This document shows, one piece after another, positions 10,332 through 53,965 of a stretch of 64,000 nucleotides of DNA. The translations under genes and the position numbers were made by a program. A model generated the notes under the pieces. The model did not search any database, was not told the DNA's origin, and saw only the letters and a program-made list of their open reading frames with translations. The stretch is from assembly GCA_964291395.2 (NCBI GenBank), contig OZ219856.1:544001-608000 (forward strand), in the 5' to 3' direction. Numbering within the stretch: the stretch's first letter is position 1; every line of letters begins with the position of its first letter. Source of the stretch: Alphaproteobacteria bacterium. GTDB lineage: Bacteria; Pseudomonadota; Alphaproteobacteria; UBA2966.

Positions 10332-10396
10332 TGTCCGGCCCCTCTGTCCAAACGTTACGAAATCGATCTCGGGCTTTGGCCCGGGGAACGTCCGGC

Positions 10397-21581: not shown

Positions 21582-22520
21582 TCAGGCTGCCTTCTCGCCC
21601 CGGATCGTCGTGCGATGCATGTGCCGGCGGTCTTTCTCGTAGTCGTAGTCGTTGATGGCGTAGTGCATCAGCGTGCGGTTGTCCCAGAACACGATATCGT
21701 TCGGTCTCCACGCGTGGCGGTACACGAACCGCGGCTGCGAGGCGTGATCTGCGAGGAAGTCGAGCAACGCGGCGCTTTCCTCCCGCGTCATGCCGACGAT
21801 GCCGGTCGTGAACCCGGGACTGAGGAACAACGACTTGCGCCCCGTCTCGGGATGCTCGCGCACGAGGGGATGGATCACCGGCGGAGTCCTGGCCAGCTGC
21901 TCCGGCGTGATCGGTTCGTTGAGACCGAGGTTCTTCACGAGGCTCTGCACCTTGGCGAAACTGTGCTCGGCCTCCAGCCCTTCCAGAAACGACCGCATCG
22001 GCGCGGACAGGGCGTCATAGGCCAACGCCAGGTTCGCGAACATGGTGTCGCCGCCGACCTCGGGAACCTCGATGGCGCGGAGCAGGGAGCCGAGCGACGG
22101 TTGCGCCATATAGGAGAGGTCGGAATGCCAATAGTGCCCGGCGCCGGCGCGACCCACGCGTTTCCCGTCCTTCTTCAGGTTCGAGAGGATGTAGATCTCG
22201 GGCAGCCCGTCGAGCAGGGCGTCGTTCAAGACATGATGCTCGAGTTCCCCGAAGCGCCTGCTGAACGCGACATGAGCCTCGGGCGAGATGTCCTGGTCGC
22301 GGAACAACAGCAGGCCATGGGTGTTGAAGGCATTCCGCAGCGTAGCGATCTCGGCGTCGGAGAAGTCCCGCGACAGGTCGATATCGCGGACCAGCGCACC
22401 CAACGCCTGCGAGGCCTTCGTGACGGTCATCTTCGATTCGGCGACGCGGCGGCGCGGCGGAGCCTGCCTCCCGGCCTTGCCCGCGCGCTCCGCGCCGGCG
22501 GTCTCGCTTGCGATTGACAT
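21582..22520 (-). CDS. TauD/TfdA family Fe(II)/2-oxoglutarate dioxygenase
   Basis: WHSDLSY (HxD), GGDTMFAN, HPLVREHPETGRKSL, WDNRTLMHYA. Confidence 0.92.
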   Translation of the reverse strand: MSIASETAGAERAGKAGRQAPPRRRVAESKMTVTKASQALGALVRDIDLSRDFSDAEIATLRNAFNTHGLLLFRDQDISPEAHVAFSRRFGELEHHVLNDALLDGLPEIYILSNLKKDGKRVGRAGAGHYWHSDLSYMAQPSLGSLLRAIEVPEVGGDTMFANLALAYDALSAPMRSFLEGLEAEHSFAKVQSLVKNLGLNEPITPEQLARTPPVIHPLVREHPETGRKSLFLSPGFTTGIVGMTREESAALLDFLADHASQPRFVYRHAWRPNDIVFWDNRTLMHYAINDYDYEKDRRHMHRTTIRGEKAA

Positions 22521-22749
22521 CGATCGTTCCCCTTCGGCAGGTCGTCCCTTGGGATGGGAATATGCCGTCTATCACCGGACCTTGGCAAATTCACGCTGCG
22601 CGGCATCCGGGGCCAAGGGGATTCCCCTTCACGGTAATCGGAACGAACGCCGCCGCCTTGGGCGCCGGGCGCGTTCGTGATATGCAGGCGCGCCCGTCCG
22701 GGCGATCCATCGCGCACCCCGTTCCCAACCACGGGCAAGACATACGGTA

Positions 22750-23235
22750 ATGACCATATCTGACAAAGCCCTCCTTCACGTCCTCAAGCTGCTTGAGGAG
22801 GCCGACAACCTCGCGATCGAGGTCGAGTCGGGTGGCATGCGTCTCACGGCCCGGAAAGGCGACGCCGCCTCAATTCCGCGGACGGATGCCGCTGCCACAG
22901 GTCCGAATGCGAGCGGTGGTGAGGCCGGCGCTCCGTTGCCGGAACCGGCACCCGCGGCGGCGACCGAACCGTCCGCCGACGCGGCGGAAGACGGGGTGAT
23001 CGTCGTGCGTTCACCGATGAAGGGCACGTTCTACCGGGCTCCGGCTCCGGGAGAACCCCCGTACTGCGACGCCGGCGACCGGGTCGGCCCCGACGACACC
23101 GTGTGCCTGGTCGAGATCATGAAGCTGTTCAACTCGATCCCGGCCGGGGTCTCGGGGACCGTCGAGAGGTTCTTCGTCGAGAACGCCGCACCCGTCGACT
23201 TGAACCAGCCCATCGTCTCGATCCGTGCCGACTGA
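22750..23235 (+). CDS. Biotin carboxyl carrier protein (AccB-like)
   Basis: Ala/Pro-rich linker, SPMKGTFYRAPAPG, EIMKLFN biotinylation site. Confidence 0.9.
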   Translation: MTISDKALLHVLKLLEEADNLAIEVESGGMRLTARKGDAASIPRTDAAATGPNASGGEAGAPLPEPAPAAATEPSADAAEDGVIVVRSPMKGTFYRAPAPGEPPYCDAGDRVGPDDTVCLVEIMKLFNSIPAGVSGTVERFFVENAAPVDLNQPIVSIRAD

Positions 23236-23263
23236 GGCCGCTGCACCAAAGCCTGATCCGCCA

Positions 23264-24745
23264 ATGTCCCGGCGATTACAGGTCTTCGACACCACCCTGC
23301 GGGACGGGCACCAGTGCCTGTGGGCGACGCGCATGCCGACGGCCATGATGCTGCCGGTCATCGAGACCTTCGATCGCACGGGCTATGGTGCCATCGAGCT
23401 GATGGGCAACGTGCATTTTGACGCCTGCGTTCGCTATCTGCGTGAGAATCCCTTTGAACGCCTGCGTGAAGTCAAGAAGCGGCTGGTCCGGACGCCGCTC
23501 CAGGGCTTCATCCGCAGTGCCTGCGTCCTCGGATTCGACATCAAGCCCGCCGATATCAACCGCCTTTGGGTCGACGTCCTGCTGCGCAACGGGACCGACC
23601 GTCTGCTCGCCTTCGACGGGCTTCACGATTTCGACAACACGGCGCCCTACCTGAGATACGCGAAGGAAAACGGGGCGCGGACCGTCCATTGGCTGATATT
23701 CAGCGACAGTCCGGTCCATACCGACGAGATGTATGCCGCCAAGGCGCGCGAGATCATCGACCGCGCCGACGTCGACGAGATCGTCATCCAGGACACGAGC
23801 GGAATCCTCACGCCGGAGCGCGCGGCAACTCTCGTGCCGGCGCTGAGGGCCGCGGCCGGCGACCGGCCGTTGGGTCTACACAGCCATTGCCTGGTGGGTC
23901 TTCCCCAGCGGACCTATCTCGAGGCCGCGCGGCACGGCGTGGACGGGCTGTATACCTGCGTCTCCCCCATCGCCGACGGTAACGCGCCGCCCTCGGTCCA
24001 GACGACAGCGAGAAATCTGCGCTATGCGGGCTATGAGCTCGACATCGACGACGCGGCGATCGATGCCATCAGCCGACATCTCGACGCCGGGATCACCCTG
24101 CTCGGCAAGCCCCCGGGGCGGCCGCAGGATTTCGATCTCGGTCAGTTCGATCACCAGATCCCTGGCGGCGTGATGTCCAATCTGATCGCCAATCTGGAGC
24201 AGGCGGGCATGGCCGACCGGCTCGCCGCGGTCCTTGAGGAATCCGGCCGGGTGCGGGCCGAACTGGGTTGGCCCATCATGGTCACGCCGTTTTCCCAGCA
24301 CGTCGCCGTGCAGGCGGCGCTCAACATCATCCACGGCGAGCGCTACGGTGTCGTCCTCGACGAGGTCAAGCTCTACGCCTTGGGATATTTCGGAAAGCTG
24401 CCGGCCCCGGTCGAGCCGGACGTCCTGGACCGCATCATCGAGAGGGGATCGGCGGCGATCGCCTTGGACCCCCCGGAACCGGAGCCGGCCGTGGAGCGGC
24501 TGCGCCGGCAGTATCCCGGAATCGACGATGAGGAGCGCATGCTTCGCTATTCCTTCCCGGAGGATGCGGTCGACGACCTCTACGCCCGGCCCGGCGACAA
24601 CCTGCCCCCGACGATGTCCGTTCCGTTCCTCGACCTGGTCGACAAGCTGCGGGACCGGAACGTCCCGGCCCGGATCTCGGCCGGGGGCGCGGACATCGAC
24701 GTGGAGATCAGTCCCGCCGCGGCGTCCCGCGGGAGCGGCGCGTAG
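23264..24745 (+). CDS. Pyruvate carboxylase subunit B / oxaloacetate decarboxylase alpha-like carboxyltransferase, copy 1
   Basis: DTTLRDGHQ, LHSH, HQIPGGVMSNL, GWPIMVTPFSQ; alternative GTG start at 23225. Confidence 0.85.
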   Translation: MSRRLQVFDTTLRDGHQCLWATRMPTAMMLPVIETFDRTGYGAIELMGNVHFDACVRYLRENPFERLREVKKRLVRTPLQGFIRSACVLGFDIKPADINRLWVDVLLRNGTDRLLAFDGLHDFDNTAPYLRYAKENGARTVHWLIFSDSPVHTDEMYAAKAREIIDRADVDEIVIQDTSGILTPERAATLVPALRAAAGDRPLGLHSHCLVGLPQRTYLEAARHGVDGLYTCVSPIADGNAPPSVQTTARNLRYAGYELDIDDAAIDAISRHLDAGITLLGKPPGRPQDFDLGQFDHQIPGGVMSNLIANLEQAGMADRLAAVLEESGRVRAELGWPIMVTPFSQHVAVQAALNIIHGERYGVVLDEVKLYALGYFGKLPAPVEPDVLDRIIERGSAAIALDPPEPEPAVERLRRQYPGIDDEERMLRYSFPEDAVDDLYARPGDNLPPTMSVPFLDLVDKLRDRNVPARISAGGADIDVEISPAAASRGSGA

Positions 24746-24747
24746 CC

Positions 24748-26211
24748 ATGGCGCGGACCATCCGCATCGTGGACACCACGCTTCGCGACGGGCACCAGTG
24801 CCTGTGGGCGACGCGCATGCCGACGGCCATGATGCTGCCCGTGGCGGACGCCTTCGACCGCTCCGGATTCTGGGTCATCGAAATGATCGGGGCGGTTCAG
24901 TTCGACGCCTGCATGCGGTTCATCGGCGAGAATCCCTGGGCCCGCATCCGGGAACTCCGCCGCCGCATCTCACGACCCCTCCAGGTGATCATGCGCAGCA
25001 ACTGCGCCCTCAATTTCGATCGCCAGCCCGTCGACATCAACGAGCTCTGGGGGGAACTGCTGGCGAGGAACGGCCTCGACCGGGTCTATGCGTTCGACGG
25101 TCTGCACGACTACGACAACACGGTCCCCCAACTTCTGAGCGCCAAGGCGCATGGCGCCCGGATCGGTCACTGGCTGCTCTACAGCGTCAGCCCCGTCCAC
25201 ACCGACGAGCTCTATGTGCGCAAAGCGCGGGAGATCATCGACCGCGCCGGAGTCGAGGAACTCATCATCGAGGACGCGAGCGGCGTGCTGACCCCGGAAA
25301 GGGCCGCCACCCTGGTGCCGGCGCTCAAGCGGGAGATCGGCGACATGCCGCTCGGCCTACACATGCATTCCCTCGTCGGGCTGCCGCAGCGAACGTATCT
25401 GGAGGCCGTCAAGCACGGCGTCGACAACCTCTATTGCTGTGTCTGGCCAGTCGCGGACGGCAATGCGCCGCCATCCGTGCAGACGACCGTGCGTAACCTT
25501 CGATACGCGGGCTACGACGTGGCAGTGAACGACGAGGCGGTGGACGACATCAGCCGTCATTTCGAGGAGCAAGCCTTCCTGCACGACATGCCGACGGGCG
25601 ACCCGCAGGACTTCGACCTCGCGCACTTCGACCACCAGATCCCCGGTGGCGTCCTGTCGAACCTGATCTCCCAGCTCCGGGACGTTGGACTGGAGCACAA
25701 GCTTCCCCACGTCCTTGAGGAATGCGGCCGAGTGCGGGAGGATCTGGGCTGGCCGATACAGGTCACGCCGTTCGCCCAGTTCCTGGCGGTGCAGGGAACG
25801 TTCAACGCCATCCACGGCGAGCGCTACGCCGTGGTTCCGGACGAGGTGAAGAAGTATGCACTCGGCTACTTCGGCAAGCATCTGTCGCCGGTCGATCCGG
25901 ACGTCATGGACCGCATCGTCGAGCGGGGCTCCAAGCAGATCCCCTTGGAAGCGCCTGAGCCGGAGCCCGCCGTCGACCGGCTGCGCGCGCGGTATCCGGA
26001 CATGCCGGACGAAGAGCGGTTCCTGCGCTACTCGTTTCCCGAGGAGATCAGCGAGGCCACGCTGTCGAAAGATCCGATCGCACCACTTCCGCCCATCCTG
26101 ACATCGTCATTCGTCGACCTGCTCAAGGCGCTCCGCGAGATGAAGCGGGGCACCCACGTGTTCATCCGGCAGGGTGGCGTCGAGATCGCCGTGGAGGCGC
26201 GCACCGCGTAG
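24748..26211 (+). CDS. Pyruvate carboxylase subunit B / oxaloacetate decarboxylase alpha-like carboxyltransferase, copy 2
   Basis: DTTLRDGHQ, LHMH, HQIPGGVLSNL, GWPIQVTPFAQ; colinear paralogue of copy 1. Confidence 0.85.
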   Translation: MARTIRIVDTTLRDGHQCLWATRMPTAMMLPVADAFDRSGFWVIEMIGAVQFDACMRFIGENPWARIRELRRRISRPLQVIMRSNCALNFDRQPVDINELWGELLARNGLDRVYAFDGLHDYDNTVPQLLSAKAHGARIGHWLLYSVSPVHTDELYVRKAREIIDRAGVEELIIEDASGVLTPERAATLVPALKREIGDMPLGLHMHSLVGLPQRTYLEAVKHGVDNLYCCVWPVADGNAPPSVQTTVRNLRYAGYDVAVNDEAVDDISRHFEEQAFLHDMPTGDPQDFDLAHFDHQIPGGVLSNLISQLRDVGLEHKLPHVLEECGRVREDLGWPIQVTPFAQFLAVQGTFNAIHGERYAVVPDEVKKYALGYFGKHLSPVDPDVMDRIVERGSKQIPLEAPEPEPAVDRLRARYPDMPDEERFLRYSFPEEISEATLSKDPIAPLPPILTSSFVDLLKALREMKRGTHVFIRQGGVEIAVEARTA

Positions 26212-30234: not shown

Positions 30235-31797
30235 TCAGCCCACGCGGCGTTCCTGGCCCGCCCAAAACTTCTCGCGGACATCCTTCTTCAGGACCTTGCC
30301 GACCGCGCTTCTCGGAAGCTCGTCCCAGAACTCTACGGTCTTTGGCGACTTCACGCTGCCTAGCCTGGCCTTGCACAACGAGATGACTTCGTCCTCGGAG
30401 ACGTGCCGTTCGGGCTTGAGCTCGACGACCGCCTTGACCGCTTCGCCCCACTTTTCGTCCGGAACCCCGATCACCGCACAATCCTGAACCGCCGACAGCG
30501 TCAGGATCACGTTCTCGACCTCGCTCGGCCACACGTTGAATCCGCCGGACACGATCATGTCCCGTTTGCGGTCGACGATGTAGACATAGCCGTCCCCGTC
30601 CTTGTAGCCGATGTCGTTCGTATGATGCCAACCGTGGGCGGAGACCTCTTCGGTCGCGTCCGGGCGTTTGTAGTAGCCATCCATGACGATTCCGCCCCGC
30701 GTCACGATCTCGCCGACCTCACCGGCCTTCAGAATACTGCCTTCGTCGTCCATGATCTCGACCGCGGTGAAGAGGCTGGGCCGGCCCGCGCTGCGCAGAC
30801 GATGTTCCTTGTCCGGATCCCGGCAGGCTTCCGCCTGGTCCTGCCTGGAGAAATAGGTGCTGATGAAGGGCGATTCCGTTTGCCCGTAGGATTGCGACAT
30901 GACGGGTCCGAAGACGTCGACGGCCTCCTTGAGCTTGTCCGGAGACATCGGCGACGCCGCGTAGTGGAAGTACTTCAGGCTCGAGTAGTCGCAGTCCCGC
31001 ACCCCGGGGTGCGCGAGCCACCTGTAGATCGCGGTCGGCGGCAGGAACACCGTCGTGACCCGGTGCGTCTCGATCATCTCCATCATGACCTCGGGAAGGG
31101 GCCGTTCGACGACGACGATCGTCGTGCCGTGCGGCAGCAGCATCAGCGACATCGCGCCCGCCACGTGCGTCATCGGCGCCGCCGCGAGATAGACCGGCGG
31201 CTCCTCGTAGGGCATGGCGGCCGAGGCGTTGGCGAGCATGAAGGCGAAGTTGAGATGGGTCAGAGGAACGCCCTTGGGAACGCCGGTGGTGCCTCCGGTA
31301 TAACGAATGGCCGCGTAGTCCCGCGGGTCGCAGGCGATATAGGGCGCCCGATCCTCCCGGTCCGCGATCCAGTCGTCCAAAAACGGCGCGTTCGCGCCCT
31401 CGCGATCCACGCAAACGAACTTGCGGATGCCGGGCACGCGGTCCCGGATCTCGGCGGCGTGCTCCTCGAACGCGCTGTGATAGAAGAGGAGTTCGCAGCC
31501 GCTGTCGCCGAGGACATGGACGTTTTCCGCCATCGCGCCGCGCGCGTTGATCGGCACCCACGCCGCGCACGCCCTCAGGATTCCCAGCACGCAGATGAAC
31601 GCCATGGCGTCGTTGGGGCTGAAAACGGCGGCTTGGCGGCCCTTGGAGATTCCTTCCGCGATGAGGGCATTGCCGATCCTGTGCGTGAGCCGTTGGGTCT
31701 CGCCGAACGTGACGCGTCGGCCGCCCTGGATGAAGCAGTCCCGCTTCGGGTTCAGGGAGACACCTCGGTCGAAATAGTCGATCAGCCTGAGTACCAT
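30235..31797 (-). CDS. AMP-binding acyl-CoA synthetase
   Basis: YTGGTTGVPKG, YGQTE, VDRKRDMIVSGGFNV, PRSAVGKVLK. Confidence 0.93.
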   Translation of the reverse strand: MVLRLIDYFDRGVSLNPKRDCFIQGGRRVTFGETQRLTHRIGNALIAEGISKGRQAAVFSPNDAMAFICVLGILRACAAWVPINARGAMAENVHVLGDSGCELLFYHSAFEEHAAEIRDRVPGIRKFVCVDREGANAPFLDDWIADREDRAPYIACDPRDYAAIRYTGGTTGVPKGVPLTHLNFAFMLANASAAMPYEEPPVYLAAAPMTHVAGAMSLMLLPHGTTIVVVERPLPEVMMEMIETHRVTTVFLPPTAIYRWLAHPGVRDCDYSSLKYFHYAASPMSPDKLKEAVDVFGPVMSQSYGQTESPFISTYFSRQDQAEACRDPDKEHRLRSAGRPSLFTAVEIMDDEGSILKAGEVGEIVTRGGIVMDGYYKRPDATEEVSAHGWHHTNDIGYKDGDGYVYIVDRKRDMIVSGGFNVWPSEVENVILTLSAVQDCAVIGVPDEKWGEAVKAVVELKPERHVSEDEVISLCKARLGSVKSPKTVEFWDELPRSAVGKVLKKDVREKFWAGQERRVG

Positions 31798-31891
31798 GAG
31801 TTCGGTCGAGCGGCGGCATTGGATCCTGCTGCCGGATGAAAAAAGCCGCCGCCGCGAGTTATGTCAACGGCCTGCGCACGCTGGGTGTGCC

Positions 31892-32386
31892 CTATTTCTG
31901 GTGCCCGTCGTGGCCCGTTTCTCCCCGACGCGCCGTGCCCGCCTCGATAACCACGTCCACGTCGACATCTCCCGCCGATTCGAACTCGAGCGTCATGGGA
32001 AAGGTCATCCCCTTCCTGAGCGGCGTCCTGAGTCCCAGCAGCATGATATGCAGGCCGCCGGGCTCGAGCACGACCGTTCCGCCGGCCGGAATCTCGACGG
32101 CCTCGACGGGACGCATCTTCATCACGTCTCCCTTCATCTCGTGGGTGTGAAGCTCGGCGCGGTCCGCGATGTAGGTCGACGCGCCGATCAAACGGTCGGT
32201 TCGAGACCCGGAGTTGTACACCGTGACGTAGCTCACTCCGTTTCGCGCCTTCAGCGACAGCGAGGCACGCGCCCACGGATGGGTGATCCTGATGTCGCCG
32301 GCCGTGATCTCGTGTCCCAGAGAAGCGGGGCTCTGCACCGAGCAGACGGTCAGTATCAGGACGGCGAGGAGAAGGCTGCGACTCAT
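31892..32386 (-). CDS. Copper chaperone PCu(A)C
   Basis: Signal peptide; HPWARA, ELHTHEMKGDVMKMR, LEPGGLHIML; His-containing tail. Confidence 0.92.
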   Translation of the reverse strand: MSRSLLLAVLILTVCSVQSPASLGHEITAGDIRITHPWARASLSLKARNGVSYVTVYNSGSRTDRLIGASTYIADRAELHTHEMKGDVMKMRPVEAVEIPAGGTVVLEPGGLHIMLLGLRTPLRKGMTFPMTLEFESAGDVDVDVVIEAGTARRGETGHDGHQK

Positions 32387-32535
32387 ATCGGTCTCGGGAG
32401 ACTGGTGCCGGCGAGCGAGATTATCTCGACGGCGGCCCGCGGTGTCCATGACAGCCGATGATGTCCTCAATATGATACCGCTCGAATCCTTCTCGCTCGG
32501 ACGAGCGAGGACGAAAGCAATTGGAAGGGATGGAC

Positions 32536-33342
32536 ATGGCCCAGGCGTTCTCGATGATCCCGTTACCCCCGGAACGCAGCACGACGAAGCCGCGCATCAA
32601 GGGGCGAACGATGATGATGGATTGGGGCATGCCCCTTCGCGAACAGGAAGACCTCTTGAGCCTGATCGCGCCTTACGTGGATATCGCCAAGTTCGTCGTC
32701 GGCACGGCCCGCCTCTATGAGGAGGAGTATCTGAGAACGAAGATCGGGGTCTACGAGGACCACCAGATAGAACCCTTTCTCGGCGGCCAGTTCTTCGAGT
32801 TCGTGTTCGGCACCCAGGGCGTCGAAGGGGTGAAGCCCTACTGTGAAGAGGCCAAACGCCTGGGTATCGGCGCCATCGAGATTTCGGACAACGTGGTGCC
32901 GCTTTCGAGCCGGGATCGCCACGAAATCACGGAGATTGCCGTTGACTGCGGGCTGCACGTCCACGGAGAGGTCGGGTCCAAGCACGACGTGACGACGGCC
33001 GAGACCCTGATCGAGCAGGCGAACGAGTTCTTTGACGCCGGCGCGGACGTCGTTCTCGTCGAGGCTGCCGAACTGGTCGAGGACGGGGAGCCCAACAAGC
33101 CGTTGATCGGCGATCTGGCGAGCGGACTGGACGTCGCCAAGGTGTTCTTCGAGCTCCCCGGAGCATGGATCAAGGGAACCACGACGACCGAGGTGATCTA
33201 TCTCAAGAAGTTCCTGATCGACGAGTTCGGGCCCGACGTCAACATCGCCAACGTGCTGCCGGGCAACGTGTTCGAGACCGAGGCGCTGCGCTCGCATCTG
33301 AGCTTCGCCGGGCCCCGGCAGATGAACCGGGCAGCCGAATAG
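32536..33342 (+). CDS. comA: Phosphosulfolactate synthase (ComA) family protein
   Basis: KPRIKGRTMMMDWG, YVDIAKF, GGQFFE, IEISD, EVGSK, FGPDVNIANV, EALR. Confidence 0.82.
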   Translation: MAQAFSMIPLPPERSTTKPRIKGRTMMMDWGMPLREQEDLLSLIAPYVDIAKFVVGTARLYEEEYLRTKIGVYEDHQIEPFLGGQFFEFVFGTQGVEGVKPYCEEAKRLGIGAIEISDNVVPLSSRDRHEITEIAVDCGLHVHGEVGSKHDVTTAETLIEQANEFFDAGADVVLVEAAELVEDGEPNKPLIGDLASGLDVAKVFFELPGAWIKGTTTTEVIYLKKFLIDEFGPDVNIANVLPGNVFETEALRSHLSFAGPRQMNRAAE

Positions 33343-33372
33343 GCGGACCCCCCAATTCATGGGGAGCATGGC

Positions 33373-34284
33373 ATGAGGGAACGGCTGGGTTTCGTCGGAT
33401 TGGGCAGCATGGGCGGTCCCATGTGCCTCAACCTTCTCAAGGCCGGATTCGAAGCCACAGTCTTCGACGTCGCCGAAGGCGCCGCGGACCGGCATCTGGA
33501 GGCGGGGGCGAAGCAGGGACAGGGCCTGGGCGACGTGGCGAGAAACAGCGATGTCGTCGTGACCATGCTGCCGAACTCGGGTGACGTGGAAGACGTCGTC
33601 CTGGGTGAGGACGGCGTTTCGGCGCACGCGCGGGAGGGCATGCTCGTCATCGACATGAGTACGATCTTCCCGGAGATGTCGATCAGGGTCGCCGGGGAGC
33701 TCCGGGAGAAGGGCGTCGGCTTCCTCGACGCGGCGGTGGGCCGCACGGCGATGCATGCCGCGGCGGGCACGTCGATGTTCATGGTGGGTGGCTCGACGGA
33801 GGATCTCGAACGCGCGCGGCCCATTCTGGAGGCCATGGGCGATACGATCCATCACTGCGGGCCCGCGGGCAGCGGCGTGCAAACCAAACTGGTCAACAAC
33901 TACATGACCGCGAGTCAGGCCGTAATCACCTCGGAGGCCTTGTCGCTGGCGCGGAAGCTCGGTCTCGATCCCGAGCGGACGGTGGAGATCATGTCCAGCA
34001 CGATGGCGTCGAACGCGCTGGTCTCGTTCTATTTCCCGAGAAAGGCGCTGGCCGGCAACGTCGATCCCGGATTCGCGTTGATGCATGCCCGGAAGGACCT
34101 GACGCTGGCGGTCCGGCTCGGCGAGCAGCAGGATGTCGCTATGGCTACGGGCGCGGCGGCCTTGGACACGTACGACCGCCTCTTCGACGAAGGTCACGGT
34201 CAACGGGACTTCTCATACACGTTGATGGGTGCCTGCGAGGCCGCAGGTGTCGAACCTCCCCGCATCGAGGCGCCCGAGGATTAG
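33373..34284 (+). CDS. Beta-hydroxyacid dehydrogenase family, sulfolactaldehyde reductase (YihU)-like
   Basis: GFVGLGSMG, TMLPN, DMSTI, DAAVGRT (instead of DAPVSGG), KLVNNYM, KDL. Confidence 0.85.
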   Translation: MRERLGFVGLGSMGGPMCLNLLKAGFEATVFDVAEGAADRHLEAGAKQGQGLGDVARNSDVVVTMLPNSGDVEDVVLGEDGVSAHAREGMLVIDMSTIFPEMSIRVAGELREKGVGFLDAAVGRTAMHAAAGTSMFMVGGSTEDLERARPILEAMGDTIHHCGPAGSGVQTKLVNNYMTASQAVITSEALSLARKLGLDPERTVEIMSSTMASNALVSFYFPRKALAGNVDPGFALMHARKDLTLAVRLGEQQDVAMATGAAALDTYDRLFDEGHGQRDFSYTLMGACEAAGVEPPRIEAPED

Positions 34285-35426
34285 CTCTGCAGGACCGCGT
34301 CGCTCTTTATCAGCGCCGAGATCTCCGAAGCGTCGAAGCCCCAGTCACGCAGGATTTCTTCGCTGTGCTCGCCCCGCGCGGGCGGCGGGCCGGCAATCTC
34401 CGCCTCGGTGCGGCTGAACCTGGGTGCGGGCGCGGGCTGGTCGACGCCGTCGACGTTCGCGACGGTCTGGCGAGCGGCGATATGCGGATGATCGGCCACT
34501 TCGGATAGCGAGAGGACGGGTGCGACGCAGACTTCCTCGCCGTCGAAGATCCGCGTCCATTCGTCCCGCGTTTTCCGACGGACGACCGCCGCCACCGTTT
34601 CCTTCGTCTTCGGCCAGGCGCCGCGGTCGTGCTGGGGCGGCATTCGCTTGATATCGAGACCGAGGAGGCGCCACGTCCGCTCCCAGAATTTCGCTTCCAC
34701 GGAGCCGATCGCGATCCATTTGCCGTCCCTGGTCTCGTAGGTGTCGTAGAACGGCGAGCCCGTATCGAGGTAGTTGCTCCCGCGCGCGTCAACCCAGTAG
34801 CCGCCGGCGTGAAAGCCGAAGAAGTACGCCATCATCGACGCTGCGGCGTCGATCATGGCGGCGTCGACGATCTGTCCCGTTCCCGACTCCCGTGCTTCGA
34901 GTATGGCGGCCAAAAGCCCCATCGCGAGGTAGGCGCCGCCGCCAAAGTCGCCCACGAGATTGAGCGGCGGTGTCGGCGGCCCGCCCGTGCGGCCGATCGC
35001 GTGCAGAGTCCCGGTCAAGGCGATGTAGTTGATGTCGTGGCCGGGTGCGGAGGCGAGGGGTCCGTCCTGTCCCCAGCCCGTCATGCGGCCGTAGACCAGG
35101 CGGGGATTCCTCTCCATGCAGACGTCCGGACCAAACCCGAGCCGCTCCATGACGCCGGGACGGTAGCCTTCGATCAGCGCGTCGGCCCGATCGACGAGGC
35201 GAAGGACGGCGACTTGGCCGGCCGGGTTCTTGAGATCGACCGCGATGGATCGCCGCCCCCGGTTCATGATCTGCGTCCTGGGATCGTGATCGATGCGCCC
35301 GGCGATCGCCTGCTGCCGGTCGATCCTGATTATCTCGGCGCCCAGATCCGCGAGCAGCATGGCACAGAACGGCGCCGGCCCCAGACCCGCGAACTCGACG
35401 ATCCTGATCCCTTTGAGAGGCCCCAT
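34281..35426 (-). CDS. CaiB/BaiF CoA-transferase family, alpha-methylacyl-CoA racemase-like
   Basis: GPLKGIRIVEFAGLGPAPF, EGYRPGVMERLG, GHDINY, PLNLVGDFGGG, PAPAPRFSRT. Confidence 0.92.
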   Translation of the reverse strand: MGPLKGIRIVEFAGLGPAPFCAMLLADLGAEIIRIDRQQAIAGRIDHDPRTQIMNRGRRSIAVDLKNPAGQVAVLRLVDRADALIEGYRPGVMERLGFGPDVCMERNPRLVYGRMTGWGQDGPLASAPGHDINYIALTGTLHAIGRTGGPPTPPLNLVGDFGGGAYLAMGLLAAILEARESGTGQIVDAAMIDAAASMMAYFFGFHAGGYWVDARGSNYLDTGSPFYDTYETRDGKWIAIGSVEAKFWERTWRLLGLDIKRMPPQHDRGAWPKTKETVAAVVRRKTRDEWTRIFDGEEVCVAPVLSLSEVADHPHIAARQTVANVDGVDQPAPAPRFSRTEAEIAGPPPARGEHSEEILRDWGFDASEISALIKSDAVLQS

Positions 35427-35739
35427 TGCCTTCCCCCGTACCGCATGTCCCATCGATCGGAGCCGGAACGTTCCTGAGCGAAGCCCGCTCCCGGTTTTGC
35501 AGCGACCTGGCGCTCTCGTCCCAGTGTTGCAAGGCAACGCAGCCTTTCGCAAGTGAGCATCGCTCCGGAACACTTCGGCTTCCCGGGGATGTCGAACCGG
35601 AGCGCTTGAATCCGAGGATCTTCTTGGAGACCGCCTTCAGGCAGGTGGGATCAGGGCAAGCTGGCCGGTGAGTTTCTCCGTCAGATTGGCGTTCGGTGTC
35701 GCGGCGGCCCGTCTCGCCAAGTCGGAACCGCCGAGAATA

Positions 35740-35797
35740 TACTACCAAGTGGTTGAACATCGGATGAGATGCCCTTATATTCAACCGTATGGTTGAA
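35740..35797. promoter_or_regulatory. Two ArsR-type operator palindromes (autoregulation)
   Basis: Perfect TTCAACC-gtat-GGTTGAA (35780-35797) overlapping the ArsR start codon, plus degenerate TACTACC-aagt-GGTTGAA (35740-35757). Confidence 0.75.
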
Positions 35798-36130
35798 CAG
35801 AACCTCAATCTCGTCTTCCATGCACTTGCAGATCCCACCCGCCGAGCCATCCTCGATCGCCTGGCGGTGGGGGAGGAGACCGTCGGCAGCCTCTCCGAGC
35901 CCTTTTCCATTTCCTTCGCCGCGGTGTCCAAACACCTCGGCGTGCTCGAGCGCGCCGGCCTGGTGACGCGCGAAGCGCGCGGCCGGGAACGGGTGTGCCG
36001 GATCAATCCGGCCGCACTCGAGGACGCCCGCGCCTGGCTCGAATTCCACGAGCGCTTCTGGACTGAACGCTTGGATGCGCTCGACGACTTGATCAACACC
36101 ACCTTCGGCCAGTCGGGCACATCGCGATGA
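35789..36130 (+). CDS. ArsR/SmtB family transcriptional regulator
   Basis: FHALADPTRRAIL, AVSKHLGVLERAGLV, GRER. Confidence 0.93.
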   Translation: MVEQNLNLVFHALADPTRRAILDRLAVGEETVGSLSEPFSISFAAVSKHLGVLERAGLVTREARGRERVCRINPAALEDARAWLEFHERFWTERLDALDDLINTTFGQSGTSR

Positions 36131-38984: not shown

Positions 38985-39752
38985 ATGGCAGTTTCGCGGC
39001 GGGAGGAGCAGCGATTGAGCGGTCAGGAGTCCCTCGCATCGGAGTTCGTGGTCGAAATCTGGCGCGGCCGGGAGTCGGGGAAGTTCGTCTCCTATCGTGT
39101 GCCCCAGCGGGAGAGCCAGACGATCCTGGATGTCGTCTCCCACGTCCAGCGCCGAATCGATCCCACCCTGTCGTACCGGTTCGCGTGCCGGGTCGGCATG
39201 TGCGGCTCGTGCGCCATGACGGTCAACGGCGTTCCCCGCTGGACCTGTCGTACACACGTGGATCGCGTGGCCAAGGACGGGCATATCCGGATCGAGCCGC
39301 TTCGTAATTTGCCGGTCATCCGCGACTTGGCGGTCGACATGGCGCCATTCTTCGACAAATGGCAGCGCGCGACCGGCCGGTTCGTGCCGTCGGACAAGGA
39401 CAACAGGCAAACGTTTGCCCGCGTGCCGCCCGATTCACGGGAGCGGCGGGCGGCCGATGCCGGCATCGAATGCATCGGCTGCGGCGTGTGCTATTCGGCC
39501 TGCGATGTCGTTGCGTGGAATGCGGACTATCTGGGCCCTGCCGCGCTCAACCGCGTATGGACCCTCGTCAACGATTCGCGTGACGGCGGTCGGCGTGAGC
39601 ACCTGGCGGCCGTGGCGGGAGACGCGGGCTGTCATCAGTGCCACAGTCACCAGGCCTGCATGTCGTATTGTCCGAAGGACCTGAACCCGACGGCCGCCAT
39701 CGCCGGGCTGAAACGCGAGACGGTCAAGTCCTTGCTGCGAGGTGAACTGTGA
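38985..39752 (+). CDS. Succinate dehydrogenase/fumarate reductase-like iron-sulfur subunit
   Basis: CRVGMCGSC...C (2Fe-2S), CIGCGVCYSAC, CHSHQACMSYCPK. Confidence 0.9.
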   Translation: MAVSRREEQRLSGQESLASEFVVEIWRGRESGKFVSYRVPQRESQTILDVVSHVQRRIDPTLSYRFACRVGMCGSCAMTVNGVPRWTCRTHVDRVAKDGHIRIEPLRNLPVIRDLAVDMAPFFDKWQRATGRFVPSDKDNRQTFARVPPDSRERRAADAGIECIGCGVCYSACDVVAWNADYLGPAALNRVWTLVNDSRDGGRREHLAAVAGDAGCHQCHSHQACMSYCPKDLNPTAAIAGLKRETVKSLLRGEL

Positions 39753-40084
39753 CCGGCAGGTTGGAGGTCTGGCTGTACGTCGCGCAGCGGGGGAGCGCGT
39801 TCGTGCTCGCCCCGCTCGTGATCATCCACCTTGCGACCATGATCTACGCCATTCAGGGCGGGTTGTCGGCGGAGGAGATTCTTTCCCGGACCGAGGGGAG
39901 CGCGGTTTGGGGAACCGTGTACGGCCTCTTCGTGGCTGCCGCGGCCGTTCATGCACCGATCGGCGTCCGATCGATCATCAGAGAAATGACTCCCTGGAAG
40001 GGCAGGATGCTTGATTTCGCGGCGCTCCTGTTCGGCACCCTCATCGTCGTTCTGGGCATTCGCGCCGTGGGGGCATTGGTATGA
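39749..40084 (+). CDS. SdhD-like membrane anchor
   Basis: WLYVAQRGSA, three TM helices, VHAPIGVR heme-His; overlaps its neighbours. Confidence 0.75.
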   Translation: MTGRLEVWLYVAQRGSAFVLAPLVIIHLATMIYAIQGGLSAEEILSRTEGSAVWGTVYGLFVAAAAVHAPIGVRSIIREMTPWKGRMLDFAALLFGTLIVVLGIRAVGALV

Positions 40085-40428
40085 AATACGCCGTCGCATT
40101 GCGCAATCACCCGACCTATTGGGCCTTCGTACTTCACCGGGTATCGGGGTTGGCGCTGGCCGTGTTCGTTCCCGTACATCTCTACACGCTCTCGCTGGCG
40201 GTCCAGGAAGCCGCGCGTTTCGATGCCTTCCTCGAATGGACCGAGGCTCCGGCCGTCAAGGCGGGAGAGGCCCTGCTCGTCCTGTTGCTTGCGGGACACC
40301 TGGTGGGAGGCTTGCGTCTGCTGGCGCTTGAATTCCTGGAATGGCGCGACTGGCAGAAGTCGGTGGTCGCGATCACCGCGGGTGTTGCGGTCGCTTGCGG
40401 GCTGCTGTTTCTTATGAACGCATTTTGA
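40081..40428 (+). CDS. SdhC-like cytochrome b subunit
   Basis: LHRVSG, GHLVGGLR, three TM helices. Confidence 0.8.
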   Translation: MKYAVALRNHPTYWAFVLHRVSGLALAVFVPVHLYTLSLAVQEAARFDAFLEWTEAPAVKAGEALLVLLLAGHLVGGLRLLALEFLEWRDWQKSVVAITAGVAVACGLLFLMNAF

Positions 40429-40459
40429 TCGGCTCGCTACCCGAAGACGGACGTCTGAA

Positions 40460-42208
40460 ATGACCGAACATGCCGTTGCCCGTCACAAGACCGACATTCT
40501 GATTCTGGGAAGCGGCGGTGCCGGGCTGTTCGCGGCGCTCCACGCCCATAAGGCGGCGCCGGATCTGGATATCACCGTGGCGGTCAAGGGTCTGCTCGGG
40601 AAGTGCGGTTGCACGCGGATGGTGCAGGGCGGCTACAACGTCGCGATCGGGGCCGGCGACTCGGTCGAGCGTCATTTCATGGACACGATCGAAGGCGGAA
40701 AGTGGCTCAACAACCAGGAACTCGCCTGGACCCTGATCACGACGGCCGTCGAGCGCATACACGAACTCGAGAACGAACTCGGATGTTTCTTCGACCGCAA
40801 TGCGGACGGCTCGATCCATCTGAAGGCGTTTGCGGGGCAGACCTACGATCGGACGGTGCACAAAGGCGACCTCACGGGCATCGAGATCATCAACCGGCTG
40901 GCCGAGCAGGTGTGGGCCCGGCGCATCAACCGAATGGAGGAACATCGCGCCATCGCACTGGTTCCGGCGGACGATGGCAGCCGGATCTCCGGCGTGCTCC
41001 TGATCGATGTCCGGGACGGCCGTTTCCACTTCGTTCAGGCGAAGGCCGTGCTGCTCGCGGCGGGTGGGGGGCCGACGATGTACCGGTACCACACGCCGTC
41101 CGGCGACAAGACCTGTGACGGGATGGCGATGGCGCTGCGCGCGGGATTGGCGCTTCGCGACATGGAAATGATTCAGTTCCATCCGACCGGTCTGATCGCG
41201 GGCCGGGAAACCCGGATCACGGGAACCATCATCGAGGAAGGGCTGCGCGGCGCCGGCGGTCATCTGCTGAACGGGGACCACGACCGTTTCATGGAAAACT
41301 ACGATCCCCGAGGCGAGCGCGCGACCAGGGATATCGTCAGTCGCGCCATGTTCGAGGAAATGCGGCAGGGACGGACAGGACCCAATGACGGTCTGTTCAT
41401 CACGATGCGCCACCTGGACCGCGACCTCGTGCGCCGGCAGTTCAAGGGCATGGTCGAGCGCTGCGCCGACTGCGGGTTCGACCTCGTGGGCGGCCTCGTG
41501 GAAGTCGTTCCGACGGCGCACTACATCATGGGTGGAGTCGAGTTCGATACCTCGTGTCGAACGTCCCTGGAGGGGCTTTTCGCCGCGGGCGAGGACACCG
41601 GCGGCGTTCACGGCGCCAACCGGCTCGGCGGCAACGGCGTTGCAAACTCGACCGTATTCGGCGGCATCGCCGGCGACGTGATGGGGCCTTGGGTCATGAA
41701 GGAGGGGGCGTTCGTCGATCCGGACCGGTCCGTGATCGACGCCGCGGTCGGGTACAGTTTGCATCCGTTCGCCAAACCCCAAGGCGACCTGCTCGACATG
41801 CGGGAGCGACTCGAAGACATCATGTGGGACGACGTGGGAATCATTCGTGATCCGGAACGCCTACGCCGTGCGCGCCGGTCCCTGGCCGAGCTCAGAGAGG
41901 AACTCTCGGAAACCGGCGTGGCGGCGTCGGATCCTGCGTTCAACCTGACGTGGCACGACTGGCTGAACCTGGACAGCCTCATTCTCGTGAGCCAGGCCAT
42001 CACCGAAGCCGCCTTGGCGCGGGAGAACTCGCGCGGCGCCCATTTCCGCGAGGACTTTCCGGAGGAGGGCGACTTCGCGGCGTCGTATTTCACCACCGCA
42101 CGATTGGACGGTGAGGGCATCGATGTCGAAACTGCCCCGGTCGAATTTTCTCGAGTCGAGCCGGGAGAAACGCTGATACGTGAAGAAGCGGAAACGGCCG
42201 CAGCATAG
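40460..42208 (+). CDS. Succinate dehydrogenase/fumarate reductase/L-aspartate oxidase family flavoprotein (non-canonical)
   Basis: GSGGAG, QFHPTG, PTAHYIMGG, HGANRLGGN, RENSRGAHFRED. Confidence 0.9.
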   Translation: MTEHAVARHKTDILILGSGGAGLFAALHAHKAAPDLDITVAVKGLLGKCGCTRMVQGGYNVAIGAGDSVERHFMDTIEGGKWLNNQELAWTLITTAVERIHELENELGCFFDRNADGSIHLKAFAGQTYDRTVHKGDLTGIEIINRLAEQVWARRINRMEEHRAIALVPADDGSRISGVLLIDVRDGRFHFVQAKAVLLAAGGGPTMYRYHTPSGDKTCDGMAMALRAGLALRDMEMIQFHPTGLIAGRETRITGTIIEEGLRGAGGHLLNGDHDRFMENYDPRGERATRDIVSRAMFEEMRQGRTGPNDGLFITMRHLDRDLVRRQFKGMVERCADCGFDLVGGLVEVVPTAHYIMGGVEFDTSCRTSLEGLFAAGEDTGGVHGANRLGGNGVANSTVFGGIAGDVMGPWVMKEGAFVDPDRSVIDAAVGYSLHPFAKPQGDLLDMRERLEDIMWDDVGIIRDPERLRRARRSLAELREELSETGVAASDPAFNLTWHDWLNLDSLILVSQAITEAALARENSRGAHFREDFPEEGDFAASYFTTARLDGEGIDVETAPVEFSRVEPGETLIREEAETAAA

Positions 42209-42253
42209 GCACGCCCGGCGGGGGCCTCCGGCCGGGCGCGATTGAGGTTGAGA

Positions 42254-43225
42254 ATGATCAAACAGGATGCCATTGGCGAAGCCGCGCAGGAGATCATGCG
42301 CCGGGCCGCCATCGTGATCCCCGAGGACTACAAGTCCGGGATCCGAAAAATGGTCAAGGAAGAGGAAAACGAGCTTAGCCGGTTCGTCCTGGAGGCGATG
42401 TGCGAGAACTGGGACGTCGCCGAAGAGGACCGCCGAGCCATGTGCGCCGACACCGGGTTGCCGCGCTACTACGTGAAAGTCGGGAACGAGGCGCGGGTCG
42501 AAGGCGGGATGGTCGCGCTCGAGCGGACATTGCGCCGAGCGACGGCGCAGGCCACTCGGGACATCCCGCTCCGGCCCAATCGCGTCCATCCGCTATCCCG
42601 GGTCGATCACAACAACAACGTCGGCATCCTGGCGCCCGAGATCGAATACTCCTTCGAGCCCGGCGCCGACTGGATCGACATAACGTCGGTGCACAAAGGG
42701 GGCTTGTTCGGCAGCGACTACCGTATGCTCTTTCCGGGTGACGGCATCGACGGGATCAAGAGGTTCTTCCTCGACGTGATGCTCGAATTCGGGCGCCGGG
42801 GCCTCGCCTGCCAGCCGGCCATCGTCGGGGTGGGTCTCGGGGGCAGCAAGGACACGGCGATGACGATCGGAAAGCAGGCGGCGTGCCTGCGGGTCGTGGG
42901 CGATCGCAGCCCGGACCCCGAGATCGCGGCGCTGGAGGAAGAGCTGATGGAGATGGGCAACAACATCGGCATGGGACCCATGGGATTCGTCGGGAAGTCC
43001 ATGGTGGTCGACTGCCACGTCGAGGTCGCGTACACCCATACCGGCGGCATGCCGATGAGCGTGCACAGCTTCTGCCTGTCGTCCCGCCGCGCCGTCGCGC
43101 GCATCGGCGCGGGCGGTGAAGTCGGCTACCGAACCGATCCGCAGTGGTTCACCCCGTACCACCGGCGAAGCGGCGTAGAATGGGAGGGTGAAACGCCCGG
43201 CCTTGATCAGGCGGTGGCGCAGTGA
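42254..43225 (+). CDS. Class I fumarate hydratase / L-tartrate dehydratase-like, alpha subunit
   Basis: MCADTG, PLRPN, ACQPAIVGVGLGG, GMGPMG, CLSSRR. Confidence 0.85.
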   Translation: MIKQDAIGEAAQEIMRRAAIVIPEDYKSGIRKMVKEEENELSRFVLEAMCENWDVAEEDRRAMCADTGLPRYYVKVGNEARVEGGMVALERTLRRATAQATRDIPLRPNRVHPLSRVDHNNNVGILAPEIEYSFEPGADWIDITSVHKGGLFGSDYRMLFPGDGIDGIKRFFLDVMLEFGRRGLACQPAIVGVGLGGSKDTAMTIGKQAACLRVVGDRSPDPEIAALEEELMEMGNNIGMGPMGFVGKSMVVDCHVEVAYTHTGGMPMSVHSFCLSSRRAVARIGAGGEVGYRTDPQWFTPYHRRSGVEWEGETPGLDQAVAQ

Positions 43226-43881
43226 AGACCAAACGGATCACACTTCCACTGACCGACGAGGCTCTGGACGGGCTCGAGCTGGGCACGGCGGTCTATCTCG
43301 ACGGTGTCGTCTACACGGGTCGCGAGGGTCTCTACAAACGGGTCCTGGATCAGGGAGTGGAACCGCCCGTACCTTTCGATTCACTCGGCAATGCGAACTT
43401 CCACTGCTCCCCCGCCGCGTCGGTCAACGACGACGGCACCTACAACCTGGGCGCGGTGACGGCGACGGCCAGCTTTCGTTTCGCTCGATGGCTTTCACAA
43501 TGGTTCGAGGCGTCGGGTTGCCGGGTCATCATCGGCAAGGGAGGCATGACGGAGGAGGACTACCGCACGCACTTCGTTCCAAACCGGGCGATCTACCTGT
43601 CCACGGTCGGTTACGGGACTGGCGCCCTGCTGGGCCGGGGCATCAAGCGGGTCATCGACGTGCACTGGCTGGAAGAGCTGGGTATCGCGCAGGCGATGTG
43701 GGTGCTCGACGTGGAGAATTTCGGCCCATTCCTCGTCGAAAGTGATTCCCGGGGCAACAGCTTGTTCGAACGCGAGGGCCGGGCCATCAATCAGCGGGTT
43801 GATGGTCTCTACGACGGGTTGAGGCAGCCGGCCCTCAAACGCTATGGCGAGACGACCTCACGTTCCGACGAGGTCGTGTGA
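43222..43881 (+). CDS. Class I fumarate hydratase / L-tartrate dehydratase-like, beta subunit
   Basis: LDGVVYTGRE, FHCSP, TATASFR, IIGKGGM, FGPFLVESDSRGNSL; GTGA overlap. Confidence 0.85.
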   Translation: MKTKRITLPLTDEALDGLELGTAVYLDGVVYTGREGLYKRVLDQGVEPPVPFDSLGNANFHCSPAASVNDDGTYNLGAVTATASFRFARWLSQWFEASGCRVIIGKGGMTEEDYRTHFVPNRAIYLSTVGYGTGALLGRGIKRVIDVHWLEELGIAQAMWVLDVENFGPFLVESDSRGNSLFEREGRAINQRVDGLYDGLRQPALKRYGETTSRSDEVV

Positions 43882-45853: not shown

Positions 45854-46213
45854 GGGTTCAGCTACGTGGGTGGTTGTCGGAATGCACGCGTCTTGTAACG
45901 GGAACCACCCGCGCTCGGCACCCGACTTCGAAGTCTGGTGTTCCTCGGCGAAAACTCATGTATGCGGACTCGCGATTGAACGGCGCGTAAGCCGTGCCGC
46001 CGTCAGGATAATCCGTCCGCCGATATGGAGCGGTATTGCCGATGCTCTTGGCCGACGAAACCTTTCTCAGGATACTATACGCGTTTGGTCCGGGGATACA
46101 TTGCGGGCTCTGAAGAGCGGTACGGAATGCCGGGGTGGAACGGCACGCCGGAGTCTCGCGGACTGTTCCGATGTTCCCGACGACGATCGAACCGACGTGG
46201 ATGAGGGTGTCCG

Positions 46214-47062: not shown

Positions 47063-47223
47063 CGGATGGCTCTCGCTCTCCCCGACCTCGCCGCGATGGG
47101 ACCACGTCGGAACGGAGCTCGGCACCCTTGTCACGGTGGCCGCGCGTCGGCTAGACCATGATCCACCGTCGGTGTCGCTACCGACCGTCGATATCACCCG
47201 ATGCTCGAGGAGTTGCCGCCAGA

Positions 47224-53953: not shown

Positions 53954-53965
53954 AGGAGTCACATT

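Follow-up and report, generated by a model that had tools for sequence, protein, structure and literature searches.

In the sea, three-carbon sulfonates such as 2,3-dihydroxypropane-1-sulfonate (DHPS), sulfolactate and cysteate serve as major currencies for the exchange of carbon and sulfur, and sponge symbionts carry many enzymes that act on sulfonates and sulfate esters. Members of the ComA family are annotated everywhere as phosphosulfolactate (PSL) synthase, the enzyme that adds sulfite to phosphoenolpyruvate (PEP), and two natural enzymes of this kind have structures in the Protein Data Bank (PDB), M. jannaschii ComA (1QWG) and B. subtilis YitD (1U83). The sulfolactaldehyde reductase YihU of E. 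coli (6SM7), which makes DHPS, is the closest described relative of a second protein considered here. We analyzed a stretch of 64,000 nucleotides (the window; G000:C1:544001-608000, ~64% G+C) in which a ComA-like gene, encoding protein P0001, is followed on the same strand by the gene of a YihU-like dehydrogenase, P0002 (Table 1). The genome is 98.1% complete with 9% contamination. The host bacterium belongs to a sponge-associated alphaproteobacterial genus, and words from the locus were matched in sponge metagenomes and sponge metatranscriptome libraries besides other coded sources. The original prediction, made from the letters alone, took the pair for a new route between PEP plus sulfite and DHPS, or for a sulfite sink. 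We find that the pair itself is a minor, genus-level arrangement and that the better lead is its first gene, which represents a putatively mis-annotated ComA branch linked to operons for sulfonate import and desulfonation.

The ComA-like protein matches PF02679 (ComA) over almost the entire profile (E 2e-53, positions 3-240 of 243). Its AlphaFold model (pLDDT 86.8) is a (beta/alpha)8 barrel whose best Foldseek match is 1QWG (E 2e-19, TM 0.76/0.82), the other top matches being 9CM1, a designed particle built on ComA, and 1U83 (TM 0.72/0.86). Ranking after ComA are enzymes of pyruvate/oxaloacetate enolate chemistry, namely transcarboxylase 5S and the PEP mutase/isocitrate lyase superfamily, at TM ~0.5. 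Against TIGR03849 the protein scores 144.6 bits, below the equivalog cut-off of 280, although this model describes the archaeal ComA equivalog and failing it alone is weak evidence. Clusters of the ESM Atlas that match the protein carry only the label 'phosphosulfolactate synthase family'.

Departures from the known enzymes are concentrated beside the core. The E-x-R-E motif named in the original prediction was recovered by HMMER alignment in both natural structures (EGRESGKGKG in M. jannaschii ComA, EARESGTGG in B. subtilis YitD), each time followed by S-G-x-G, and VLVEAAEL stands in P0001 letter for letter; the aligned motif there is EAAEL, with a deletion of 6-7 residues. Relative to both structures the protein also carries an insertion of ~11 residues after F-E-L-P-G / strand 7, the first K of E-V-G-K-K is replaced by S, and the glycine of S-D-G by N. 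Several positive charges near the core have disappeared with the Arg, the lysines of the loop and the leading K of E-V-G-K-K.

These departures define a class of proteins. Our alignment of 91 rows consists of 90 full-length representatives, query included, from a search of 1.84 billion representatives, together with a second ComA-like paralog of the same genome. Sixteen rows are classical, 59 are loop-less like P0001, and 16 are other, the second paralog among them. All 16 classical rows have R or K at the Arg position and all 16 have G in S-D-G. In the loop-less rows the Arg position is mostly A, M, V or G and never R or K, and the S-D-G glycine has become N in 42 of the 59. Nine core residues (D34, K57, E93, E120, S122, E150, K154, E181 and R257) are conserved across classical, loop-less and other rows, indicating that the catalytic core persists in P0001; one of its lysines aligns with K137 of M. 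jannaschii, the proposed acid/base. Rather than a classical PSL synthase, the ComA-like protein is a member of a large, uncharacterised, loop-less branch of PF02679. Since positive charges beside the core have been lost, its substrate would be less anionic than PEP or PSL, most simply a non-phosphorylated one. The prediction had already remarked that the protein looked divergent enough for altered chemistry; the divergence proved systematic, which makes this a fair expectation.

Elsewhere, the loop-less branch is usually built into operons for sulfonate uptake and desulfonation. Our survey of genomic context covered 91 loci, comprising 11 on genome contigs and 80 of 106 metagenome matches, with open reading frames (ORFs) crudely called and clustered by BLASTP; the retrieval patterns VHGEVGSK and TMMMDWG bias this sample toward relatives of the query. 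Dereplication of the ComA-like proteins at 90% identity left 49 groups, and in 34 of these the available sequence spans 5 kb or more. A TauD-family dioxygenase, an SsuA-type ABC importer or a sulfatase lies nearby in 22 of these 34 groups. By gene, TauD was counted in 15 groups, a choline-sulfatase-like sulfatase in 11 and an SsuA-family binding protein with its ABC partners in 11, followed by DUF3604 (9), GntR (8) and type II HAD (7); a YihU-like neighbour occurs in the window's own group only. For a gene picked at random in this genome, the chance that TauD lies within +/-8 kb is ~10% (26 paralogs in 4.16 Mb), compared to the observed 15/34, where the genes also stand in operonic order. The link to sulfite-releasing enzymes of the TauD type that the prediction had proposed thus stands at the level of the family; in this genome the usual partners are dispersed.

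Four arrangements recur among these loci. In one (A), a GntR regulator gene is followed by the ComA-like gene, SsuA, the ABC gene, one or more permeases and TauD. In another (B), a sulfatase gene runs into the ComA-like gene with a median gap of -15 bp and is then met by a convergent block in which SsuA, ABC, permease, TauD and HAD-II genes are read in that order. Some loci of the latter type carry a BisC-family S/N-oxide reductase (TIGR00509, 1010 bits) after the ComA-like gene. This block of sulfatase, ComA-like and reductase genes recurs in L089 and L091-L097 (at ~6400-11200 of each), with LysR and GntR regulators and extra TauD genes upstream of it and, further up, a fused Fer4_11 + molybdopterin oxidoreductase. 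The remaining arrangements place the ComA-like gene divergent from an MBL-fold gene, accompanied by ILVD/EDD and TauD (C), or between DUF3604 and GST genes (D). Contexts without sulfur genes exist as well, with ILVD/EDD, HpcH aldolase, 2-hydroxyacid dehydrogenases, GGT or DUF3604 as neighbours. In locus L110 a TctA gene lies upstream of the ComA-like gene; ComA homologs that flank a tripartite tricarboxylate (TTT) transporter are interpreted as catabolic in a SAR11 pangenome study (PMC11796062).

The dehydrogenase has the two-domain architecture of the 3-hydroxyisobutyrate dehydrogenase (HIBADH) type (PF03446, E 3e-43; PF14833, E 4e-26). Its best PDB match is YihU (6SM7, E 3e-56), and it aligns with the E. 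coli protein without a gap over 280 residues at 37% identity. According to its structural description, the sulfonate pocket of YihU consists of Asn174, Ser178 and the backbone NH of Arg123 (PMC8006165). P0002 has N, T (conservative for S178) and G-R-T at these positions, so that the pocket residues are present. The motifs DAAVGRT and KLVNNYMT, which the prediction had read as marks of a YihU-type enzyme, are both there to the letter, and the combination of G-R-T with N-N-Y-M-(S/T) is found in no other top PDB match: the next ones show S-G-G or T-G-G at the first motif and N-N-Q(-L) or N-Q-V(-V) at the second. Among 119 close homologs, G-R is present in 110 (101 G-R-L, 7 G-R-T and 2 G-R-S) and the common second motif is N-N-x-L-A; G-R-T together with N-N-Y-(M/L)-T is confined to the tight clade of P0002 itself. 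Judged by these residues, sulfonate binding by the dehydrogenase is plausible. Among NCBIfam models it fits NF012005 (sulfolactaldehyde 3-reductase) best, scoring 252.6 bits, below the equivalog threshold of 348. A tblastn search of the whole genome with E. coli YihQ, R, S, T, O and P, limited to sulfoglycolysis of the E. coli type, returned no match at E<=1e-5, and the match to YihV has 25% identity only. We also considered an (S)-sulfolactate dehydrogenase of the SlcC type and ruled it out, as SlcC belongs to the D-2-hydroxyacid dehydrogenase family and not to HIBADH (PMC6303947).

The ComA-like gene and the dehydrogenase gene form a bicistronic, lineage-specific operon. They lie 30 bp apart on the same strand, as predicted, with a ribosome-binding site (RBS) in the spacer, no terminator-like site, an invariant promoter-like site ahead of them and a constant adjacency of 28-30 bp among relatives, and it is on these features that the operon reading is based. 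The start ATG of the first gene and a GAAAGGGA-type RBS before it are kept in 8/8 aligned relatives. A consensus promoter scan found 3 sites, compared to a mean of 0.1 in shuffles; both hexamers of the site ahead of the ComA-like gene fall within blocks invariant in 8/8 aligned clade members, including two that have no dehydrogenase, and this site probably acts as the promoter of the ComA-like gene. No terminator-like hairpin was found between or after the two genes in a scan of 32300-34500, and no riboswitch in an Rfam scan of 31500-36000. The latter gave a single match, to CRISPR-DR20 at 24.4 bits against a threshold of 42, which was taken as chance. An invariant ATTAT core was observed at 32419-32426 (GATTATC in the window; column consensus GATTATCC) when the eight clade members were aligned. 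Lying ~60 bp upstream of the promoter-like -35 element, it falls on the -10-like hexamer of a second, divergent promoter-like site that would serve the PCu(A)C gene; alternatively, it could be a regulator site.

Both genes are under purifying selection, with dN/dS of 0.04-0.18 (ComA-like gene) and 0.07-0.20 (dehydrogenase gene). In distant comparisons the dehydrogenase accumulates 2-4 times more amino-acid change (dN 0.11-0.22 versus 0.05-0.07). Contigs from four sponge metatranscriptome libraries of two studies cover 32530-33261, 33298-33506, 33527-33893 and 34113-34311, the second of these bridging the spacer. Another contig, of 907 nt, also runs through the divergent PCuAC gene, and the contigs give neither strand nor level. 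Because of this span DNA carry-over is possible, and we claim neither expression nor co-transcription.

All five other genomes of the genus contain the ComA-like gene, at 89-91% identity. It is missing from the 7 genomes examined from other genera of the family, and none of 400 genomes sampled across the phylum gave a match at E<=1e-40, which shows rarity among those sampled only. The dehydrogenase follows it in three of the five (L003, L006 and L007), and same-clade metagenome contigs L031, L032, L033 and L035 also carry the pair, L034 being too short to judge. When near-identical records are merged (L003 with L031, L032 with L033), six distinct pair loci remain: the window, L003, L006, L007, L032 and L035. 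Every ortholog of the dehydrogenase that was found (69-89% identity) adjoins a ComA-like gene, 28-30 bp downstream of it. One 377-aa protein with both PF02679 and PF03446 (P0147) was examined as a natural fusion of the two and rejected, being out of frame at both ends and probably an assembly frameshift.

Genome-wide, many sulfite-releasing enzymes are encoded. There are 26 TauD paralogs (three of them in the window), 8 sulfatases (one sharing 61% identity with one of the ComA-adjacent sulfatases), 4 SsuA-like proteins and one DUF3604 ortholog, all dispersed and none at the pair, besides a true sulfoacetaldehyde acetyltransferase (Xsc; Table 1). The prediction had observed that no comB-E, xcb or sulfoglycolysis gene is adjacent to the pair, which is correct, and the partners ComC, ComDE and XcbC-E are likewise not adjacent; the genome-wide search for comB that it called for gave no PF04029 match. 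Three Ldh_2 genes are located on another contig in a non-sulfur context. With a single histidinol-dehydrogenase-family gene in the genome, no HpsN-type candidate is visible. Two split pairs of SAF and UxaA/GarD-type dehydratase genes lie elsewhere, presumably the architecture of SuyAB. A region of contig C3 (G000:C3:736000-764000; L127, L128) was considered as a sulfonate island and rejected, since its Pfam content is that of a general catabolic region. It contains three HIBADH genes, two Ldh_2 genes, large and small AcnX subunits, peptidases, an aminotransferase, short-chain dehydrogenases, a FIST protein and two GSTs, a content suggestive of amino-acid or hydroxyproline-type catabolism instead of sulfonate metabolism.

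The account that we favor, tentatively and at somewhat less than an even chance, is one of organosulfonate catabolism, in which the ComA-like protein would carry out ComA-type elimination or addition of sulfite on a non-phosphorylated C3 sulfo-acid and the YihU-like dehydrogenase would be a lineage-specific accessory. The Mg-enolate chemistry of ComA would here serve a reversible beta-elimination or addition of sulfite, on a less anionic and probably non-phosphorylated substrate of the sulfolactate type, and its role would lie in the breakdown of organosulfonates and not in the synthesis of coenzyme M or PSL. The dehydrogenase, which belongs with the NAD(P)-dependent reductases of the G-R clade, may interconvert a hydroxy-sulfonate and its aldehyde (DHPS and sulfolactaldehyde, or a near analogue), and may have been recruited in this genus to widen the set of substrates that reach the ComA-like enzyme. 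The analysis demonstrates the genes with their motifs and indels, the synteny, the purifying selection and the family context; we infer the substrates, the direction and the link between the two proteins. A more ambitious version would make the loop-less branch a new family of cofactor-independent, Mg-dependent sulfo-lyases for C3 sulfonates (sulfolactate, cysteate or similar), widespread in marine and sponge-associated bacteria and wired into sulfonate import operons; together with the YihU-type partner of this genus, it would constitute an undescribed route of DHPS / sulfolactaldehyde desulfonation needing neither HpsN nor SuyAB. We regard this version as unlikely.

Several observations weigh against a catabolic role shared by the two genes. 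The dehydrogenase is missing from L004 and L005, two of the six genus genomes, where the ComA-like gene abuts the CoA-transferase gene. These two genomes have no ortholog of it anywhere (best matches 44-47% identical), and their ComA-like gene is intact, with dN/dS of 0.10-0.13, so the pairing is not obligatory. Outside the clade, 0/81 loci (ComA-like proteins of 42-65% identity), many of them short, carry a close relative of the dehydrogenase; L054 has an HIBADH gene of 32% identity to it. The conservation of the neighbourhood that the original prediction had set as its own check therefore largely fails: the pair is a real and maintained operon, yet local and dispensable, restricted to one genus-level clade. 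Within the genome there are 18 HIBADH paralogs, which means that such a gene beside any given gene is not rare, and E. coli YihU matches two of the others (38.9% and 39.2%) slightly better than it does P0002 (37.1%), which ranks third. G-R alone is not diagnostic and marks a broad clade, given its presence in 110 of the 119 homologs. A quick tree unites the P0002 clade with YihU, the G-R-L group and several paralogs from the same genome in one clade (SH-aLRT 97) apart from GarR/GlxR, with the branching inside not settled. Owing to the sub-cut-off score, the better-matching paralogs, the breadth of the G-R clade and the lack of sulfoglycolysis genes of the E. coli type, membership of the dehydrogenase in the YihU equivalog is not established. 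The operon encodes no aldehyde dehydrogenase, so the aldehyde-to-acid step from sulfolactaldehyde to sulfolactate that would connect the dehydrogenase to the ComA-like enzyme is not provided there, and the two SAF + UxaA/GarD-type pairs could already serve as sulfolactate lyases. As for the ComA-like protein, the lost Arg and loop might bind sulfite instead of phosphate, their role in phosphate binding being our inference only. Finally, the names given to neighbouring genes in the survey rest on one representative per BLAST cluster (Pfam/NCBIfam) and on crude ORF calls.

Many of these points fit an explanation that we consider rather unlikely, though it deserves attention, namely that the two genes are neighbours without a shared pathway. 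The ComA-like enzyme would work alone, like its counterparts in the two sister genomes and in every other lineage, and the dehydrogenase would be a general semialdehyde reductase (succinic, malonic, tartronic or similar) that was inserted downstream and is merely co-transcribed. The loss of the dehydrogenase from two of the six genomes that keep the ComA-like gene, its absence from the other 81 loci, the 18 paralogs, the faster non-synonymous change, the score under the NF012005 cut-off and the rank behind other paralogs as a match to YihU all speak for this. It is harder to square with the fact that all orthologs found, down to 69% identity, adjoin the ComA-like gene at 28-30 bp, and that the protein has T at the S178 position and G-R-T, which most of its closest homologs (G-R-L in 101/119) do not. 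It is very unlikely, in our estimation, that the sulfur genes around the loop-less branch merely reflect general catabolic islands and that these proteins perform no sulfur chemistry at all, acting for example as aldolases, hydratases or decarboxylases of 2-oxo or 2-hydroxy acids. The pyruvate/oxaloacetate enolate enzymes that follow ComA among the fold matches and the contexts devoid of sulfur genes point that way, but sulfonate or sulfate-ester genes occur in 22/34 contexts and in several unrelated operon architectures.

The de novo synthesis of a sulfonate osmolyte, from PEP and sulfite through PSL, sulfolactate and sulfolactaldehyde to DHPS, as originally predicted, now seems highly improbable. 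It draws on the membership of the ComA-like protein in PF02679 with its catalytic core kept, on the resemblance of the dehydrogenase to the enzyme that makes DHPS from sulfolactaldehyde, and on an AMP-binding ligase and a family III CoA-transferase that flank the locus throughout the clade and could in principle activate a carboxylate. Yet ComB is missing from the genome, P0001 lacks the loop rich in Arg and Gly that the PSL synthase structures have, the flanks showed neither a CoA-acylating aldehyde dehydrogenase nor a carboxylate reductase to provide the carboxylate-reducing step, the flanking genes lie on the strand opposite to the pair, and the family context elsewhere is one of import and desulfonation, not synthesis; the standing of the dehydrogenase as a sub-cut-off, third-best match to YihU does not help this route either. 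Nor do we give much credence to a sulfite sink, in which the ComA-like enzyme would capture sulfite released by TauD or Xsc onto an enol/enoate acceptor and thereby protect a cell with 26 TauD paralogs. TauD is co-located in 15/34 contexts, the organism has many sulfite-releasing enzymes, and the known ComA reaction is an addition of sulfite (PMC9457059). The same operons, however, carry sulfatases and importers, a better fit to substrate breakdown, and the S/N-oxide reductase beside the ComA-like gene in some loci is of the BisC type and not a sulfite dehydrogenase. We know of no precedent for spending PEP-like metabolites to store sulfite. Organosulfonate catabolism centered on the ComA-like enzyme remains the account we favor.

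The implications extend beyond the window, where the pair is a local variation on the wider question of the loop-less ComA proteins. Of the 91 aligned rows, 59 are without the motif common to both natural PSL synthase structures in the PDB, and relatives of the query stand in uptake and desulfonation operons. Should the loop-less branch catalyse another reaction, many annotations would be in error and one step of sulfonate turnover would be unassigned. In literature on phosphosulfolactate synthase from 2019 onward, covered at the level of abstracts and with subscription journals mostly outside, we found no description of this branch. Within the same coverage of journals, no paper was found that ties phosphosulfolactate synthase to DHPS (one co-mention, in a reference list only) or to sulfatase plus taurine.

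Table 1. Positions of the gene pair and of related features. Plain coordinates count from the first letter of the window; coordinates with a G000:C1 prefix refer to the genome contig.
Feature	Position	Strand	Remarks
PCu(A)C copper chaperone gene	31892-32386		divergent, upstream of ComA-like gene
Promoter-like site ATGACA - 17 nt - TATGAT	32448-32476	+	consensus scan, 10/12 matches
ComA-like gene (P0001), 268 aa from ATG	32536-33342	+	PF02679; in-frame TTG at 32521, from which P0001 was read
Spacer, 30 bp	33343-33372	+	GGGGAG ribosome-binding site at 33361-33366, 6 nt before ATG of P0002
YihU-like NAD(P)-dependent beta-hydroxyacid dehydrogenase/reductase gene (P0002), 303 aa	33373-34284	+	PF03446 + PF14833
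TPP enzyme gene, best models sulfoacetaldehyde acetyltransferase (Xsc)	10397-12157	-	414.9 bits, far under cut-off 676
TauD/TfdA-family dioxygenase gene	21582-22568	-	the three TauD/TfdA proteins score 244-266 bits; taurine dioxygenase equivalog cut-off 313
TauD/TfdA-family dioxygenase gene	46205-47062	+	as above
TauD/TfdA-family dioxygenase gene	47155-48069	+	as above
True Xsc gene	G000:C1:708995-710725		926 bits, cut-off 676; ~100 kb from window
Second ComA-family paralog	G000:C1:2306848-2307564 (L014:8816-9610)		31% identity to P0001; motif E-Q-S-E-L; neither classical nor loop-less

The genes that flank the pair are separate transcription units. On the divergent side, the copper chaperone gene is followed further upstream by the AMP-binding ligase, a Zn-ADH-like gene and an ABC importer (Pfam); on the other side, the convergent family III CoA-transferase gene ends with a stop that overlaps the stop of the dehydrogenase gene by 4 bp. 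The second ComA-family paralog is kept in 5/5 sister genomes, and its neighbours are hydantoinase A/B, two FAD_binding_2 proteins, a DJ-1/PfpI protein and two Asp/Glu racemases. Other regions of the window hold recognizable gene sets, all on the plus strand. Tandem paralogs with HMGL-like and PYC_OADA domains (oxaloacetate decarboxylase alpha / carboxyltransferase type) lie at 23225-24745 and 24748-26211, adjoining ABC importer genes. An Sdh/Frd-like set (Fe-S subunit, two Sdh_cyt membrane subunits and flavoprotein), preceded by two Sel1-repeat genes, and then a split class I fumarate hydratase (Fumerase + Fumerase_C) occupy 38985-43881. Two successive amidase genes (PF01425) are found at 53954-56805, their called ORFs overlapping by ~90 bp.

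Compared with described systems, P0001 and P0002 each fail at least one defining feature of the nearest known enzyme (ComA/YitD/XcbB and YihU, respectively). With the PSL synthases of M. jannaschii and B. subtilis the ComA-like protein has in common the Pfam family, the predicted fold and the conserved acidic residues and Lys; it differs in being 29-31% identical, in lacking the Arg and loop of E-x-R-E-S-G-x-G and in its extra insertion. Xanthobacter XcbB is a further PSL synthase (PMC9457059). The ComA and Xcb pathways include ComB/ComC/ComDE or XcbC-E partners, which P0001 is without, and the context of its branch is catabolic or uptake-related. E. coli YihU is the best PDB and NCBIfam match of the dehydrogenase and has in common with it G-R-T, K-x-x-N-N-Y-M and, at the place of Ser178, a residue with a hydroxyl group; set against this are the score below the equivalog cut-off, T in place of S178, a genome without sulfoglycolysis genes of the E. 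coli type and the lack of a reciprocal best match. With the (R)-sulfolactate sulfo-lyase SuyAB the likeness would lie in the proposed reaction only, in which a C3 sulfo-acid loses sulfite and yields pyruvate, as the SuyAB fold (SAF + UxaA/GarD-type dehydratase) is unrelated to the ComA-like branch. Clusters of the ssu/tau/ats type, for the use of sulfonates and sulfate esters, are known from E. coli and Pseudomonas. To our knowledge, the classical clusters contain no ComA-family gene, and, unlike in them, the partners in this genome are dispersed and not adjacent to the ComA-like gene. What these clusters and the contexts of the loop-less branch have in common is an SsuA-family binding protein, an ABC permease and ATPase, a TauD-family dioxygenase, a sulfatase and a regulator.

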